Assembly (NCBI GenBank): GCA_021740845.1
Contig: JAIOYZ010000004.1
Coordinates: 54,142 to 118,141 of the forward strand
DNA: 64,000 nucleotides
Direction: 5' to 3'
From: Bacteroidia bacterium
GTDB lineage: Bacteria; Bacteroidota; Bacteroidia; UKL13-3
Made by a program: the position numbers and the translations under genes. Position 1 is the first letter of the stretch. Each line of letters begins with the position of its first letter. The notes below the pieces were generated by a model. It had not been told where the DNA came from. It made no database searches and worked only from the letters and a program-made list of their open reading frames with translations. Shown here piece by piece: positions 10,864-17,184 of the stretch.

Positions 10864-11009
10864 TTACAAGTAAACCCTGACAAGCTTGCAACATTGCGGC
10901 TATCAAGGGAAAGTAAATATAGCCAGGCGCACATTAGTGTAAAATTTTTCAATACGTGTAAGAGCTAAATTTTTCCATACGCACAGCCAGACATTTAGAA
11001 ATTAATTAT

Positions 11010-11054: not shown

Positions 11055-11300
11055 ATGCAAAATCTGCTACTCAGACAAGTTGCTGCTCCTATTGAAGTTG
11101 ACACTGCATTAATGAGTAAGGCTGAAAGAGGTGAATGGAATTTGAATAGGGACCAAGTTGTAAAGCTTGCCAAATTCTTTAACTCATCAGAGGAAGAGTA
11201 TATTTCTCTATGGCTTTGCGACAAAGTAATTGAAGCGGTTGAGAATGACCCTTTGGCGATTCAAGGAATAAAAAAAGCACTAACAAAAATCAAGAATTAA
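11055..11300 (+). CDS. Short XRE-type helix-turn-helix protein, possibly 5-prime eroded
   Basis: LRQVAAPIEVDTALMSKAERGEWNLNRDQVVKLAKFF resembles helices 2-5 of HTH_3/XRE domains. HTH-like sequence (TNQITETRE) continues upstream of the ATG to an in-frame TAG at 11025-11027. Confidence 0.6.
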   Translation: MQNLLLRQVAAPIEVDTALMSKAERGEWNLNRDQVVKLAKFFNSSEEEYISLWLCDKVIEAVENDPLAIQGIKKALTKIKN

Positions 11301-11305
11301 TTTCG

Positions 11306-13279
11306 ATGCAAATCATTCACAAAATAGACGACTTTTTATTTACCATTTTTCCTGAACTAATAGGGGGGGGTAATGACTTAATTGTCAGTACTTTAGAGGA
11401 TTATTATACCTACGGTCCTTTCAAGCCAAAAGTAAACACGGACAATGGTTGGGTAAAAATAGAAATTGACACCCCGACCATTTTATCGCAGGAAGACGAC
11501 TACAGAAAAACTGTAGCCCTATGTGAAAAAGGAAAATACTCAGAGGCAAAACCAATCCTAAATAAACTTATTGAAAAGAATCCCACAAATTCGGAATATC
11601 ACCGAATTATGGGACAAATACTTTCAGACGAAGGCGACCAAGAACAAGCAATCAATTGCTTAATTGATGCCTTACGTTGGGACTCAAGAAATGGATGGGC
11701 ATTGCTTATGATGGGAAACATTTTTGCTAGGTTCAAAGATGATGTTCCAACTGCTATGAAATATTATGACCAGGCACAAATAGCAAATCCAAATGATAAT
11801 ATCACCATAAACAACATTGGTGCTAACCTTATGCAACAAGGTAAATTGGAAGAAGCTAAAAAATATTTTTATGATGCATTAAAGATTAACGACCAATATG
11901 CAAACACTCATTTTGCATTAGGAATGATTGCTGAAATGGAAGCAGACTTGCAGTCTGCTTTTTTCAGCACCATTCAGGCGATTAAGTTAAGTAAAAGCAA
12001 GGATGTTCTTTATCAAAATTCGGTAAGACAAGCATTTGAAATTGTAAAAAAGTTAATAGCAACCGATACAGGTAAAAAGATTTTCAGAGAATATAGGCAC
12101 AAATTGGAATTCGAAGGTGATAGGAGAATTGATATTGTTCAAGACGAAGAGATACCGACCGCTGCAAAATTTGAGTTCGCTGAAAATTATGAAAGAGATG
12201 TTCATATTGTTAGGTATAAACCAAGCTATCCGGCTGTTGAGCATCTTATTATGCATGAGCTAGTTCATCTTGATTTTATAATCGAAGCAAGAAAGGACGA
12301 TTTAAATCAATTATTCATTTCCAATCAAAGTCACAAGACACAATTTATAAAGGGACTTGAGCCAACAATAAAGAAATTCAATAAAATGGGAATTTCTGAA
12401 AAATCAATTGCTGATTATTGCTCAAACCTATTTGAAGGGATGAATCGGCAAATCTTCAACACTCCAATTGACTTATTCATTGAACAGTTTTTATTTACAG
12501 AATTCCCTGATTTAAGAGCCTATCAGTTTATATCTCTTTACACCTTGTTACAAGAAGGTTTAAAAGCTGTAACTGACAAAAAGATTGTTGAACTATCACC
12601 AAAAGACATCATTTCAAAAAGCAAGGTATATAATCTCGTGAATGCAATTCAATTCAAGGAATTATTCGGACTTGACTTTATAAATGATTTCAATGCAACA
12701 CCAAGTGAATCAAAACATGCAAATGATTTCTATGAAGAATACCTGCAATACAGAGATGACAAAGAACCTGCTGAAGAATATGAATTGGTATTGCATTGGG
12801 CTGAAGACTTAAAACTTGACAAGAACTTCGAACTTGTTAATGAAAAAGAATTTAGAACCAAAAGAACAAACATAGACAATCTTTTATCATCCATTGAAAA
12901 AGACCCATATGACTTGGAATCCAAGGACCCTTACAAGGAATGGGAAATGGAGAAATTTCAAAAATCACAACAGAGCATTGGGACAAACATGGCCGTTGTC
13001 ATGTTCATGGTTGATGCTCTCCAATTTTTTGACGGAATGCCCAATGAAGAAATAAAGAAAATAGCTTTTGAAATAGCAATGCAAGGCACTCAGGGTTATA
13101 GACCTGAGAAAGATGATTACCGAATTAGTTCCATCAAAGGCAAAACGTTTTCAGGTTATCACATTCTTGCGTATTACTATGTTAGTTGGGCTTTGGCAAT
13201 TCCTGAAATGCTTTCTCAATTGCAATTACCATATGATGATGAATACAAACTGGCTTTAACCATGGATAAACCTAATTAG
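11306..13279 (+). CDS. TPR-repeat protein with a central HExxH (HELVH) metallopeptidase-like motif
   Basis: TPR-like repeats span about residues 66-230 (e.g. GKYSEAKPILNKLIEKNP, GKLEEAKKYFYDALKIND). HELVH is at residues 317-321 (nt 12254-12268). The start lies 5 nt after the HTH stop. Confidence 0.7.
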   Translation: MQIIHKIDDFLFTIFPELIGGGNDLIVSTLEDYYTYGPFKPKVNTDNGWVKIEIDTPTILSQEDDYRKTVALCEKGKYSEAKPILNKLIEKNPTNSEYHRIMGQILSDEGDQEQAINCLIDALRWDSRNGWALLMMGNIFARFKDDVPTAMKYYDQAQIANPNDNITINNIGANLMQQGKLEEAKKYFYDALKINDQYANTHFALGMIAEMEADLQSAFFSTIQAIKLSKSKDVLYQNSVRQAFEIVKKLIATDTGKKIFREYRHKLEFEGDRRIDIVQDEEIPTAAKFEFAENYERDVHIVRYKPSYPAVEHLIMHELVHLDFIIEARKDDLNQLFISNQSHKTQFIKGLEPTIKKFNKMGISEKSIADYCSNLFEGMNRQIFNTPIDLFIEQFLFTEFPDLRAYQFISLYTLLQEGLKAVTDKKIVELSPKDIISKSKVYNLVNAIQFKELFGLDFINDFNATPSESKHANDFYEEYLQYRDDKEPAEEYELVLHWAEDLKLDKNFELVNEKEFRTKRTNIDNLLSSIEKDPYDLESKDPYKEWEMEKFQKSQQSIGTNMAVVMFMVDALQFFDGMPNEEIKKIAFEIAMQGTQGYRPEKDDYRISSIKGKTFSGYHILAYYYVSWALAIPEMLSQLQLPYDDEYKLALTMDKPN

Positions 13280-13281
13280 TA

Positions 13282-13611
13282 ATGAAAGAAAACGAAGAAA
13301 TAATAGAAGCACTCTTGAAATTCAGAAATGAAAGAGATTGGGAGCAATTTCACAATCCAAAGGATTTGGCATTAGCAATTAGTATTGAATCTGCTGAACT
13401 TTTGGAATTATTTCTTTGGAAGAAAGCAGATGAAGCAAATACTGAAAAAGTAAAAGAGGAACTTGCCGACATTTTTTCATTTGCATTTTTACTTGCAGAA
13501 AAATATGGTTTTGATGTAAAGGAAATTGTTTTGGACAAAATCAAAACAAATGGAGAAAAATATCCTGTAGATAAAGCAAAAGGTTCAGCAAAAAAGTATG
13601 ATGAACTATAA
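13282..13611 (+). CDS. MazG-like nucleotide pyrophosphohydrolase (DCTPP1/YpjD-type, all-alpha NTP-PPase)
   Basis: FRNERDWEQFHNPKDLALAISIESAELLELFLWK...EELADIFSFAFLLAEKYGFD...NGEKYP is the characteristic small MazG-family pattern with EXXE and E..D acidic clusters. Confidence 0.85.
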   Translation: MKENEEIIEALLKFRNERDWEQFHNPKDLALAISIESAELLELFLWKKADEANTEKVKEELADIFSFAFLLAEKYGFDVKEIVLDKIKTNGEKYPVDKAKGSAKKYDEL

Positions 13612-15808
13612 CCAAGATTTTGAAATAAACAAAATTGCGTTCAATAATAATGGATTGAATTCTATTCAATCACAATATTTTGTAAGCGAAAATTGGCCTG
13701 TCGTATATATTTTAAATAACAATGGTATAAGTCAAGCCTATGTTGGCGAAACCATTGATACTAATTCTCGAATTTTAACCCATTTGCAAACACCAAGCAA
13801 AAGTCATCTCCTAGAAGCTCATTTAATTTCCAGTAAAAAATTCAATAAATCTGTAACATTAGATATTGAATCCAATTTAATAAAATTTTTACATGCTGAT
13901 GGAAAATACAAATTATTGAATGGTAATTTAGGATTGGTAAATCACTCATATTATCAAAGAGATGAGTTTTATTGGGATATGTTTAGAGATATTTGGAATG
14001 GACTTATAAGTAACGGTATTGCCCAACATAGTTTAGAACATATCTCAAATAGCGACCTGTTTAAGTATTCGCCCTATAAAACTTTATCTGCTGATCAAAG
14101 GAAAAATTTAATGCTAATTATTGACGCACTTCTTTCTGAAAATAAGAAATCAGTTTTGGTAGAAGGCGGTGCAGGCACAGGCAAGACTATTCTAGCCATT
14201 TTTCTTTTTAAGTTAATGCTAACCTCTGATGAGGATTTTAATTATAGAGAATTCGGAGAAGACGAAAAAGAATTTATTGATAAAGTAAAACAATTAAAAA
14301 TAAAATTTCCGAATCCTAAAATGGGTTTGGTGATAGCAATGGGTTCTTTTAGAAAAACTATTAAAAAGGTTTTTCGAAACATTAGCGGTCTAAATTCTAA
14401 TTTTGTTATTGGTCCTTCAGATCTTGAATATGAATCATATGATATTCTTTTTGTGGACGAATCACATCGTTTGAGAAAAAGAGTAAATCTTGGCCCATAC
14501 TTCAAAATTTATGACAGGGTTTGTAATGCCCTAAAACTAGACAAACTAAAAACTTCGGAGTTAACATGGACTCAATTAAGGGCAAATAAAGTATTATATT
14601 TTTACGATGCTAAACAATCTATAAAACCTTCTGATGTTGATGCTGTTGATTTTGAAAAAATAAAAAATGCTCCTAACTCAATAAATGTCAAATTGCATTC
14701 ACAGTTCCGAGTAAAGGGTGGCAATGGATTTGTTGATTTTGCAAATAATTTATTGGATAATACTTTTAAGAATAAAGAGTTCAAGTACAACGATACCAAT
14801 TATGACTTGCTACTTTTCGATAATTTTTCTGATTTCGTGAATGAACTTAGAGAAAAGAACAAAAAACATCAGCTTTCTAGATTCATAGCTGGCTATGCAT
14901 GGCCTTGGGTTAGTCAGAATGACCCTAATGCATATGATATTGAAATAGAAAATATTAAACTAAAATGGAACTCAACTTCAATTGATTACATCAATTCTGA
15001 TATTGATGCACAAGAGGTAGGTTGTATTCATACCACTCAAGGTTACGATCTCAATTATGCAGCAATAATTTTTGGACCTGAAATAATATACAATCCAATA
15101 TCAAAAGAAATAGAGATAGTAAAGGAAAATTATAAAGACAGAAATGGAAGTGCAACAATAAGAGATAACGCAATACTGAAAGACTATGTAGTAAATATTT
15201 ACAAAACTATTATGCTCAGAGGCATACTTGGCTGTTACATTTATGTGTGTAACGAAAATTTACGAAATTATTTTAGAAAGCACATTTATTTATTTAATGA
15301 AAGTAAAAAACCAATAATTGATATAGGTGAGTCAAAAGAAATAAAATTGATTCCTTTTGAAAATAGTGTACCTTTATATTCATTGAATGTTGCAGCAGGC
15401 GCTTTAAGATTGAATGAAGAATTTCCAAATGAACAATTTATTTTAGTTCCGGAAGGGGTTAGAATTACAAAAGACCATTTTGCATGTAAAATAATAGGTA
15501 ACTCTATGAATAAAATAGTGCAAGATGGTGAGATTGGATTGTTTAAATGGTACGAAGGAGGCAGTAGAAATGGTTTAATGGTAATTGCAGAATGTATAAA
15601 TCTGCAAGATTCTGATTATAGTTCTTGTTATACTTTTAAGGAATATTATAGTCAGAAAGTTGTTACTGAAGAAGGGTGGCATCATGAAAAAATCATACTT
15701 AAACCAAAATCATATGACCCATCTTATCAAGATATAATAATAGACCCTGAATCAATATATGATAGACCAATTAAGGTAATAGGTATATTTGATAGAGTAT
15801 TGAATTAA
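13598..15808 (+). CDS. Three-domain fusion: GIY-YIG nuclease + DUF2075 (Schlafen group-3-type ATPase/helicase) + C-terminal LexA-like S24 peptidase domain
   Basis: GIY-YIG: VVYIL..AYVGET..R58..H62..E91. P-loop: GGAGTGKT (res 190-197). Walker B: ILFVDESH (283-290). DUF2075-like motifs: YFYDAKQSI, SRFIAGYAWPW, CIHTTQGYDLNYAAIIFG. S24-like: VPLYSLNVAAG...GNSM (Ser636, nt 15503-15505)...TFKEY (Lys681). The start overlaps the MazG gene by 14 nt. Confidence 0.8.
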   Translation: MMNYNQDFEINKIAFNNNGLNSIQSQYFVSENWPVVYILNNNGISQAYVGETIDTNSRILTHLQTPSKSHLLEAHLISSKKFNKSVTLDIESNLIKFLHADGKYKLLNGNLGLVNHSYYQRDEFYWDMFRDIWNGLISNGIAQHSLEHISNSDLFKYSPYKTLSADQRKNLMLIIDALLSENKKSVLVEGGAGTGKTILAIFLFKLMLTSDEDFNYREFGEDEKEFIDKVKQLKIKFPNPKMGLVIAMGSFRKTIKKVFRNISGLNSNFVIGPSDLEYESYDILFVDESHRLRKRVNLGPYFKIYDRVCNALKLDKLKTSELTWTQLRANKVLYFYDAKQSIKPSDVDAVDFEKIKNAPNSINVKLHSQFRVKGGNGFVDFANNLLDNTFKNKEFKYNDTNYDLLLFDNFSDFVNELREKNKKHQLSRFIAGYAWPWVSQNDPNAYDIEIENIKLKWNSTSIDYINSDIDAQEVGCIHTTQGYDLNYAAIIFGPEIIYNPISKEIEIVKENYKDRNGSATIRDNAILKDYVVNIYKTIMLRGILGCYIYVCNENLRNYFRKHIYLFNESKKPIIDIGESKEIKLIPFENSVPLYSLNVAAGALRLNEEFPNEQFILVPEGVRITKDHFACKIIGNSMNKIVQDGEIGLFKWYEGGSRNGLMVIAECINLQDSDYSSCYTFKEYYSQKVVTEEGWHHEKIILKPKSYDPSYQDIIIDPESIYDRPIKVIGIFDRVLN

Positions 15809-16097: not shown

Positions 16098-17184
16098 TTA
16101 ATGTTGGGCGTTTTCCATTAGATAAGCTTTTATAAACTCATCTAGATTGCCATCCATTATGCTTTGAACATCGGAGGTTTCAACTTCTGTTCTTAAGTCT
16201 TTCACCAATTTGTAAGGGTGGAAAACATAATTGCGAATTTGGCTTCCCCACTCGATACGTTTTTTGCCTGCTTCTATTGCTGATTTGGCCTCATTTCTTT
16301 TGCGTAATTCCAATTCGTATAATTGAGAGCGCAACATTTGGTAAGCTCTTTCTTTATTACCACTTTGGGAGCGTTCAACCTGACAAACAATTACAATTCC
16401 CGAAGGCTTGTGAGTTAATTGAACTTTGGTTTCTACCTTGTTTACATTTTGTCCTCCAGCACCACCCGAACGAGAGGTTTGAATTTCGATATCTGCATCT
16501 TTAATTTCAATCTCAATGCTATCATCAATTAAAGGATAAACATATACGGATGCAAAGGAAGTATGTCGTCTGGCTTGGCTATCAAATGGAGAAATTCTCA
16601 CCAAACGGTGAACACCTGATTCCCCTTTTAAGAAACCATAGGCAAAGTTTCCTGAAACTTCTATGGTACATGATTTAATTCCTGCTCCATCACCTGCCTG
16701 CTCATCCACAACAGCGGCTTTCATACCGTGTTTATCTGCATACATGATATACATACGCATCAGCATTTCTGCCCAATCTTGGCTTTCAGTTCCACCTGCG
16801 CCAGAGTTTATTTGAACCATGCAATCCATTTGGTCTTCTTCACCACTGAGCATGTTTTTAAACTCTAATTCTTCTAATAAAGTTGTTGTCTCTTTGTATT
16901 GAGCATCAACTTCTTCTTCGGTTCCTTCTCCTGCTTGGAAAAATTCAAATAAAATAGAAAGATCATCAATCGATTGAGTAACCGATTCGTAGGCATCTGT
17001 CCAAACTTTTTTTAATTTGGTGGCCTTTAAATGTTTTTCAGCTTCCTTGGGATTATCCCAGAAATCAGCCATTTGAGCACGAGCTTCTTCTTCTTTGATA
17101 TCTAATAATTTAGTATCAACGTCAAAGATACCTCCTCAGAGCGTCTGCTCTATACTTCAAATCTTTTAATTGGTCTGCAGTCAT
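16098..17184 (-). CDS. prfB: Peptide chain release factor 2, with programmed +1 frameshift
   Basis: Frame 0 encodes [20 protein letters not shown] then TGA (17184-17122). A +1 shift continues as [25 protein letters not shown]... to 16098. SPF and GGQ ([14 protein letters not shown]) motifs are present. Confidence 0.9.
17121..17136 (-). promoter_or_regulatory. prfB: prfB autoregulatory +1 frameshift site (AGGAGG TAT CTT TGA C)
   Basis: The minus strand reads aggagg tat ctt tga c: an internal SD-like element, a slippery CUU, and an in-frame UGA followed by C. This is nearly identical to the E. coli site. Confidence 0.9.

Follow-up and report, generated by a model that had tools for sequence, protein, structure and literature searches.

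A LexA-type S24 domain with a predicted self-cleavage site on the GIY-YIG nuclease-helicase of a conserved two-gene module

A single open frame of 736 codons, at positions 13598-15808 (+ strand) of a 64,000-nucleotide stretch from a Bacteroidia bacterium (contig JAIOYZ010000004.1; the whole stretch is called the window here), encodes a GIY-YIG nuclease, a superfamily 1 (SF1) helicase of the DUF2075 type and a C-terminal S24 peptidase domain in one polypeptide. Judged by profile and fold comparison, this S24 domain is a genuine member of the LexA/UmuD/lambda cI type with its predicted self-cleavage apparatus intact. Together with its MazG-like upstream neighbour the gene forms a two-gene module that is strictly conserved, and its start overlaps the stop of that neighbour by 14 nt. 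The sequence evidence supports well a self-cleaving, damage-responsive switch, its direction left aside; as to direction, we tentatively prefer a shut-off of the enzyme upon DNA damage.

Nuclease, helicase and S24 domains of the fusion protein

The frame is open throughout, and the three domains that the original prediction had read from it were all recovered, with the quoted motifs in place: VVYIL (residues 35-39), AYVGET (47-52), R58, H62 and E91 in the nuclease; Walker A GGAGTGKT (190-197, nt 14165-14188), Walker B ILFVDESH (283-290) and the distal motifs SRFIAGYAWPW (427-437) and CIHTTQGYDLNYAAIIFG (476-493) in the ATPase; VPLYSLNVAAG (591-601), GNSM (634-637, with S636) and TFKEY (679-683, with K681) at the C-terminus. 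The full-length AlphaFold model reaches a pLDDT of 86 and a pTM of 0.71. Antisense open reading frames (ORFs) within the gene are short and unsupported. Homologues run to thousands in the databases, and a survey of the architecture, which had been suggested along with the original prediction, identified 80 loci in a scan of GTDB at one genome per species; in 75 of them the match runs through S24, so that 75 species genomes carry all three domains. The architecture is therefore not a product of chance.

For the 736-aa sequence, the GIY-YIG domain (about residues 33-112, 13694..13933, + strand) scores only 15.1-17.8 bits against Pfam PF01541, below the cut-off of 22.6. When 30 diverse N-termini of the family were compared, all 30 matched PF01541, and no other family, at E<=0.01, with a best value of 1.3e-9. 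The best matches of an N-terminal profile to the PDB are UvrC, T4 EndoII, I-TevI and SLX1, the E-values of which are marginal (0.005 to 0.3), and Y37, Y48-x-G50 and R58 align with the GIY-YIG core of UvrC. In 63 sequences down to 30% identity, Y37, Y48, G50, R58, H62, S85, E91 and N108 are invariant, and the alignment thus does not uphold the objection that the nuclease motifs might be degenerate. The helicase assignment is strong: SLFN-g3_helicase/DUF2075 (PF09848), the Schlafen group-3 ATPase family, matches residues 183-551 (14144..15250, + strand) at 182 bits (E 2e-53) over model positions 1-353 of 354, and in the same 63 sequences the Walker A residues G190, G193, G195 and K196 and the Walker B residues D287 and E288, located inside nt 14444-14467, are invariant. 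Fold matches of the full-length model are the SF1 helicases Upf1, RecD2, SLFN11/14, Dna2 and RecD. From their conserved motifs, both nuclease and helicase look catalytically competent.

A flexible linker (residues 573-587, 15314..15358, + strand), predicted to be disordered and with a pLDDT below 50 in the full-length model, leads to the S24 domain (residues 590-736, 15365..15805, + strand). Pfam assigns Peptidase_S24 to residues 592-717 with 23.6 bits against a cut-off of 23.3. PDB searches with single sequences, either the whole protein or the C-terminus alone, returned only noise, and profiles were needed. An exhaustive search of 1.8 billion cluster representatives yielded about 18 representatives, full-length or fragmentary, that align through the C-terminus at 35-50% identity; their tails share the motifs [VIL]P[LVF][YFV]..(x)..A[AC]G, G-x-S-M and [TS][VIF]K[EKR][YF]. 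In the PDB, a profile built from 20 diverse C-termini recovers LexA in both crystal and cryo-EM structures (1e-11), then UmuD (1e-9) and lambda cI (7e-3). In the HMMER alignment the AAG of the family falls on A84-G85 of LexA, GxSM on S119 and the lysine on K156, so that VAA-G 598-601 of the fusion protein lines up with VAA-G 82-85 of LexA; relative to LexA, the domain carries two family-specific insertions.

Modelled separately, residues 575-736 give a pLDDT of 86.4, and the top 35 PDB fold matches are exclusively LexA, lambda cI (including constructs of the cleavage-site region) and UmuD, with TM scores that reach 0.76 when scaled to target length; the sister family of signal peptidases ranks far behind. 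The fold search with the full-length model returned helicases only. The loop around the scissile bond is of low confidence in both AlphaFold models (residues 597-611 in the full-length one); the cleavage-site region of LexA is mobile. Neither the LexA DNA-binding domain PF01726 nor any other helix-turn-helix (HTH) is found by Pfam in the 736-aa protein, whose N-terminus consists of GIY-YIG and helicase.

The predicted scissile bond Ala600-Gly601 in VPLYSLNVAA-G (15395..15400), the predicted nucleophile Ser636 (15503..15505) and the predicted general base Lys681 (15638..15640), all on the + strand, are conserved as a set. Of 213 relatives bearing an S24 domain, 209 keep A/C-G, Ser and Lys together; of the four exceptions, three are cut off by the end of a contig. 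An A/C-G site is present in 212 of the 213, G601 and Ser636 are invariant, and Lys681 is missing solely in the fourth exception, P0133, a metagenome representative of 728 aa. In P0133, PIG replaces AAG (Ala to Ile) and Arg replaces Lys, with GESMN kept; it is the sole full-length member of the family without an Ala-Gly site, and site and Lys are gone together. Such joint conservation and joint loss suggest that self-cleavage is under selection and that the domain is not a mere dimerization module. We infer that the function under selection is intramolecular cutting of the A600-G601 bond. The original prediction had placed Ser636 and Lys681 where LexA-type proteins carry their dyad, and both placements agree with the alignment; it had quoted the Ala-Gly pair without interpreting it and had called for such a site to be sought, and its fallback of an S24 fold serving dimerization only is argued against by the joint pattern.

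A sub-branch (P0146, P0148, P0236 and P0344) bears a shorter, more LexA-like S24 domain that contains IPLVGSAPCG, has a Cys-Gly site and is devoid of the two family-specific insertions; this may represent a second, independent acquisition by the same scaffold. A stand-alone S24 family was considered and rejected, the seemingly free proteins among the C-terminal hits being contig fragments, fusions that are frameshifted or split by an insertion sequence (IS), or decayed SauUSI-like genes. At the C-terminus of the GIY-YIG-DUF2075 scaffold, domains seem to be swapped. Other terminal extensions in place of S24 are present in the relatives P0265, P0259, P0270, P0216, P0262 and P0127, among which P0265 ends in an XRE-type HTH and P0127 is extended by about 160 aa at its N-terminus.

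The two-gene module and a parallel among SauUSI-like enzymes

The partner gene (13282..13611, + strand) encodes a MazG-like, all-alpha nucleoside triphosphate pyrophosphohydrolase of 109 aa. It matches PF12643 at 71 bits against a Pfam cut-off of 27, its closest solved relative is the mammalian dCTP pyrophosphatase 1 (DCTPP1/RS21-C6; PDB match 6e-18), and its acidic motifs E-x2-E and E-x2-D are conserved in 80 sequences. In all 79 GTDB loci with upstream sequence a homologue of the partner, at 39-95% identity and often overlapping, lies directly upstream of the fusion gene. The hosts are Bacteroidota (Flavobacterium, Pedobacter, Chitinophaga, Chryseobacterium, Haliscomenobacter, Mucilaginibacter), Gamma- and Betaproteobacteria (Marinobacter, Alcanivorax, Vreelandella, Nitrincola, Comamonas, Allopusillimonas) and, further, Lentisphaeria, Lentimonas and Balneola. 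The partner also stands beside S24-less relatives, as in L071 (Bordetella), in L082 and on a B. thuringiensis megaplasmid, where the pair is annotated 'nucleotide pyrophosphohydrolase' and 'DUF2075 protein'. The invariable MazG-like gene upstream suggests a restriction-like defence enzyme wired directly to a DNA-damage signal. The original prediction had mentioned neither this partner nor a setting that resembles restriction.

DCTPP1 and NudG-type enzymes favour 5-modified or otherwise non-canonical dCTP/CTP. The partner probably destroys non-canonical, perhaps 5-modified, deoxycytidine nucleotides. Beside a modification-dependent nuclease, such an enzyme could keep salvaged modified nucleotides out of host DNA and so spare the host from its own nuclease, or could starve phages of their special nucleotides. 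Because the GIY-YIG-DUF2075 protein has no detectable modification reader, such a nucleotide-sanitizing role could be assigned to the partner by analogy only. One S24-less relative, L087 on the Paenibacillus plasmid NZ_CP145893.1, is preceded not by MazG but by a DUF3578 protein, a family that we take to be related to the N-terminal reader of modified DNA in McrB; this is a hint of a link to modified DNA.

Outside the module the surroundings vary. Flanking genes differ in every genome, and when neighbouring ORFs were clustered, only a tetratricopeptide repeat (TPR) gene (11 loci) recurred, besides MazG, in more than four loci; no conserved methyltransferase neighbour was found among these clusters. 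Pfam and PADLOC were applied to 136 of the 147 neighbouring ORFs. Among these 136 nearest flanking ORFs are SoFic (4), SauUSI-like Type IV enzymes (3) and DUF1016/YhcG nucleases (PDC-S02, 3), along with WYL regulators, SLATT, AAA_15/21 ATPases and ordinary housekeeping genes; further loci contribute Lamassu with an nSTAND NTPase, Z1/DUF4420 and a DUF1998-type helicase. Copies disrupted by an IS element or decayed also occur. In L005:1403-6636 an IS21-type insertion (IstA/IstB) splits a member between helicase and S24, with the MazG partner present; the surrounding island also carries Mrr, HNH and GmrSD genes. The module in its S24-less form is found on Bacillus megaplasmids, and plasmid and phage collections returned S24-less relatives only. 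Varied flanks and defence neighbours are the signature of a mobile accessory defence cassette. No flanking repeats marking an insertion were found.

The same S24 subfamily recurs on a second scaffold. Among the matches to the C-terminal domain, P0289 has it joined to the end of a DUF3427 domain, and 21 metagenome loci encode a full protein of about 1150 aa composed of a PLD nuclease, a superfamily 2 (SF2) helicase, DUF3427 and S24 (L088:3841-7675 and L093:3841-7681; also L089-L108, with L004 a decayed copy). The S24 identity is 44%, and the two S24 sets share the family-specific insertions absent in LexA. AAG, GESM and TIK are intact in 22 of 22 copies, four of which break off with their contig and so display just part of the motif set, and an overlapping gene for a 131-aa NUDIX (MutT/NudG-like) protein precedes the S24-bearing gene in all 15 loci with upstream sequence. 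The layout of PLD, SF2 and DUF3427 is that of the Type IV modification-dependent enzyme SauUSI (PMC3141236; PMC6765204), which works without S24 and is toxic if its host carries the target modification (PMC3141236). More than 60 SauUSI-like genes had been linked to a MutT/NUDIX gene whose role was left unexplained (Xu et al. 2011, PMC3141236). Two non-homologous nuclease-helicases, each with a non-homologous pyrophosphatase, have thus recruited the same S24 module. With the module present, shared insertions included, on two scaffolds, a fusion by chance or an error of annotation is very improbable, and the window protein is tied functionally to restriction-type enzymes.

Direction of the switch

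From these comparisons we infer the cleavage itself, its trigger by activated RecA, the direction of its effect and the substrates of nuclease and pyrophosphatase, as follows. The fusion gene would encode the effector of a mobile two-gene, restriction-like module, an ATP-driven GIY-YIG nuclease and SF1 helicase that attacks foreign DNA. A filament of RecA on single-stranded DNA (ssDNA), or a comparable ssDNA or damage signal, would stimulate the S24 domain, upon which Ser636 and Lys681 would cut their own Ala600-Gly601 bond in cis and separate the nuclease-helicase (residues 1-600, about 600 aa) from the S24 core (601-736, about 136 aa), the latter probably mediating dimerization. In the favoured outcome the enzyme would be shut off, a hard-wired restriction alleviation that would spare the chromosome once the enzyme, or anything else, starts to generate DNA damage. 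Cleaved LexA becomes a ClpXP substrate through its ...VAA terminus, and the large fragment, which would end in ...VAA too, may likewise carry a degron. Proteolytic alleviation of restriction as such is established: ClpXP degrades HsdR in trans (PMC4231737, PMC11109961).

A restriction-like effector that S24 self-cleavage would shut off upon damage is the best explanation we can offer, and we hold it at somewhat less than even confidence. The original prediction had favoured the opposite sign, with S24 holding the nuclease-helicase inactive until a trigger such as infection-derived ssDNA or activated RecA leads to cleavage and frees an active or toxic enzyme; we rank such licensing a little below shut-off, as a serious rival. 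Conservation of site and dyad supports both directions equally. LexA and cI are inactivated by an S24-type cut and UmuD is activated by the same chemistry, although UmuD loses just a 24-residue tail and not a whole effector; nor does the ...VAA end separate the readings, because V-x-A-G is the plain S24 site consensus. Licensing would fit the defence-type neighbourhood, and several defence systems, reportedly including AbpAB, respond to ssDNA, single-strand binding protein (SSB) or DNA damage. What argues for shut-off is the distribution of the domain. In the search of cluster representatives, most of the family consists of orthologues that lack S24 but have the same partner gene, and in a rough neighbour-joining tree of the helicase part the S24-bearing representatives fall in at least four places, each beside S24-less ones. 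S24 would thus have been gained or lost repeatedly while nuclease-helicase and MazG stayed, a pattern pointing to a safety or shut-off switch over an indispensable auto-inhibitor, since losing an essential inhibitor of a nuclease should be toxic. S24 is moreover carried by SauUSI-type enzymes; their prototype, SauUSI itself, lacks S24 and is active without being activated first (PMC3141236), which again favours shut-off over activation.

Two further explanations were weighed. The S24 domain might dimerize the enzyme or dock it in the groove of the RecA filament, with cleavage a slow, incidental turnover. Docking would direct the nuclease-helicase to intermediates of recombination or replication, the S24 cores of LexA, UmuD' and cI do dimerize and bind the filament groove (8gms and 8trg are among the fold matches), and pairing is needed for double-strand breaks with a single GIY-YIG active site. 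Binding or dimerization alone, however, requires no invariant nucleophile, base and Ala-Gly down to 25-30% identity, and the joint loss of site and Lys in P0133 would be left unexplained; we therefore regard targeting or oligomerization as improbable. Lower still we place a non-immune role in SOS-linked repair or nucleotide-pool housekeeping, in which a MazG sanitizer would act alongside a repair nuclease-helicase whose abundance is tuned by activated RecA. DCTPP1/MazG enzymes are indeed said to be house-cleaning enzymes, GIY-YIG is the fold of UvrC and Cho, and housekeeping genes flank the cassette in the window. Against this stand the patchy distribution across phyla, flanks that are different at every locus, the defence genes that often adjoin, the IS-disrupted or decayed copies and the occurrence on Bacillus megaplasmids, which together indicate a horizontally moving defence cassette and not core repair.

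Several points weigh against the damage-triggered shut-off of a restriction-like effector. The direction rests on parsimony from a rough neighbour-joining tree, in which some of the 'S24-less' representatives may be truncated metagenome ORFs, and the Pfam score for S24 is marginal when the 736-aa sequence is taken alone. Pfam finds no modified-base reader (DUF3427, SRA, PUA/EVE) in that protein, which makes the analogy to Type IV enzymes indirect. In the window the cassette lies between an SDR-family oxidoreductase gene and prfB/typA and not in a defence island. Finally, the LexA box of Bacteroidetes, CTAA-N5-TTAG, is absent near the operon and present in the window at no more than chance frequency, an observation that concerns transcription only. 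Transcriptional SOS control of the operon was considered separately, and the lack of a nearby box speaks against it.

Further genes of the window and comparison with known systems

The module is preceded on the same strand by two ORFs. The TPR gene (11306..13279, + strand) ends 3 nt before the MazG start and encodes a 657-aa protein with TPR matches and an HExxH motif (HELVH 317-321, nt 12254-12268), the region of which is invariant in 12 sequences. A full-length TPR gene accompanies 9 of the 80 GTDB loci, and a partial copy or remnant another 5. Identity of the protein stays at 84-100% across the 120 top-scoring among 2,215 database matches, and is still 87-90% next to cassettes with an effector only 43-44% identical (L077, L084). 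Either variable cassettes use the gene as a conserved anchor or hotspot, or its product is a third component under strong constraint. A role as ImmA/IrrE-type partner of an HTH protein was considered and found no support, Pfam detecting neither Peptidase_M78 nor another protease family in it. At the head of the gene string, an XRE-like HTH ORF of 81 aa (11055..11300, + strand; weak HTH_31 and RstR matches), conserved only in L081 and apparently devoid of the first HTH helix, is a possible regulator. Upstream of it lies a direct repeat, AAATTTTTC[A/C]ATACG (10942-10981), with 25 nt between its two copies; it could serve the gene string as an operator-like element. Scans for sigma-70 promoters and terminators gave results at shuffle level, and an Rfam scan returned no RNA family anywhere in the window. 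On the opposite side of the module, the prfB gene for release factor 2 carries, at 17184-17121 (- strand), the classical programmed +1 frameshift: its 20-codon frame-0 leader ends CTT TGA C (17127-17121), preceded by a Shine-Dalgarno-like AGGAGG (17136-17131), and the ORF listed at 16098-17072 is the downstream frame of prfB.

Databases file the architecture as 'DUF2075 domain-containing protein', 'DNA/RNA helicase domain-containing protein' or, at JGI, 'predicted GIY-YIG superfamily endonuclease'. A full-text literature search retrieved no description of the S24 fusion or of the MazG-DUF2075 pairing; most subscription journals lie outside its coverage, and absence there is not proof. Brief mention has been made of fusions of GIY-YIG with DUF2075 and of a possible part for them in defence (PMC6765204). 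The new element is the link between Nhi-like or Type IV-like nuclease-helicases and S24 switches. The SOS response and prophage induction are the textbook cases of a switch by LexA-type self-cleavage; to our knowledge this cleavage has so far been seen on repressors and UmuD, and we know of proteolytic restriction alleviation only in trans, via ClpXP. It is a near-even prospect, in our estimation, that the proteins described here form an unrecognized class of restriction-like enzymes with their own LexA-type autoprotease, in which a RecA-ssDNA signal would disarm or arm the effector directly, bypassing transcription, and for which at least two scaffolds would have recruited S24, each with a dNTP pyrophosphatase that would exclude phage-type modified nucleotides from host DNA. 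If so, activated RecA would have a substrate of a new kind, and the DNA-damage signal would be linked post-translationally to an enzyme of immunity or restriction; such a link would offer an answer to how ATP-driven nucleases without a methylase avoid killing their host. The strict pairing with DCTPP1-like or NUDIX enzymes in turn suggests a testable function, sanitizing of the modified-nucleotide pool, for the SauUSI-NUDIX linkage noted in 2011. The family is common in Bacteroidota and marine Proteobacteria, where experimental hosts are available.

With LexA, UmuD and lambda cI (MEROPS S24) the fusion shares the fold, the Ser-Lys dyad and an Ala(Cys)-Gly bond in the strand-loop N-terminal of the core, as well as the separation of a functional N-terminal part from the C-terminal core. 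Its N-terminal part, however, is a 590-residue nuclease-helicase instead of an HTH domain or a short tail; compared with LexA, its S24 core has two insertions, and there is no sign of a repressor function.

Nhi is reported, in bioRxiv work, to act against phages. Like the fusion protein, Nhi and Nhi-like proteins have an N-terminal nuclease followed by a DUF2075/SF1 helicase in one polypeptide. PADLOC gave weak, partial matches of the fusion protein to the hidden Markov models of Nhi and AbiO, that of Nhi (4e-11, 40 bits) spanning residues 274-422 only and not the full length. Nhi is moreover described as a single-gene system without a MazG partner and without S24. With a partial match and these differences, membership in Nhi is not demonstrated and the likeness is architectural. 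For Nhi-like proteins an anti-phage function has been shown (10.1101/2022.05.11.491447).

SauUSI-type enzymes follow the same layout, a nuclease and a helicase in one chain after a small nucleotide pyrophosphohydrolase gene, and a sub-branch of them bears the same S24 subfamily at the C-terminus. The domains themselves are non-homologous (PLD versus GIY-YIG, SF2 versus SF1, NUDIX versus MazG), and the window protein, in contrast, has no DUF3427 reader, so that any dependence of it on modified DNA is hypothetical. Schlafen group-3 proteins such as SLFN11 belong to the same ATPase family, PF09848, and the helicase fold resembles SLFN11 and SLFN14, whereas the fusion lacks the Schlafen (AlbA_2-type) RNase domain and has GIY-YIG as its nuclease. 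The alleviation of Type I restriction by ClpXP, finally, has the same outcome as we propose here, proteolysis of the helicase-nuclease subunit (HsdR) in response to a threat to the chromosome (PMC4231737, PMC11109961). In that case a separate protease recognizes, in trans, translocating complexes that have stalled, whereas that of the fusion would be built in and respond to activated RecA or damage; the likeness is one of analogy, not of homology.

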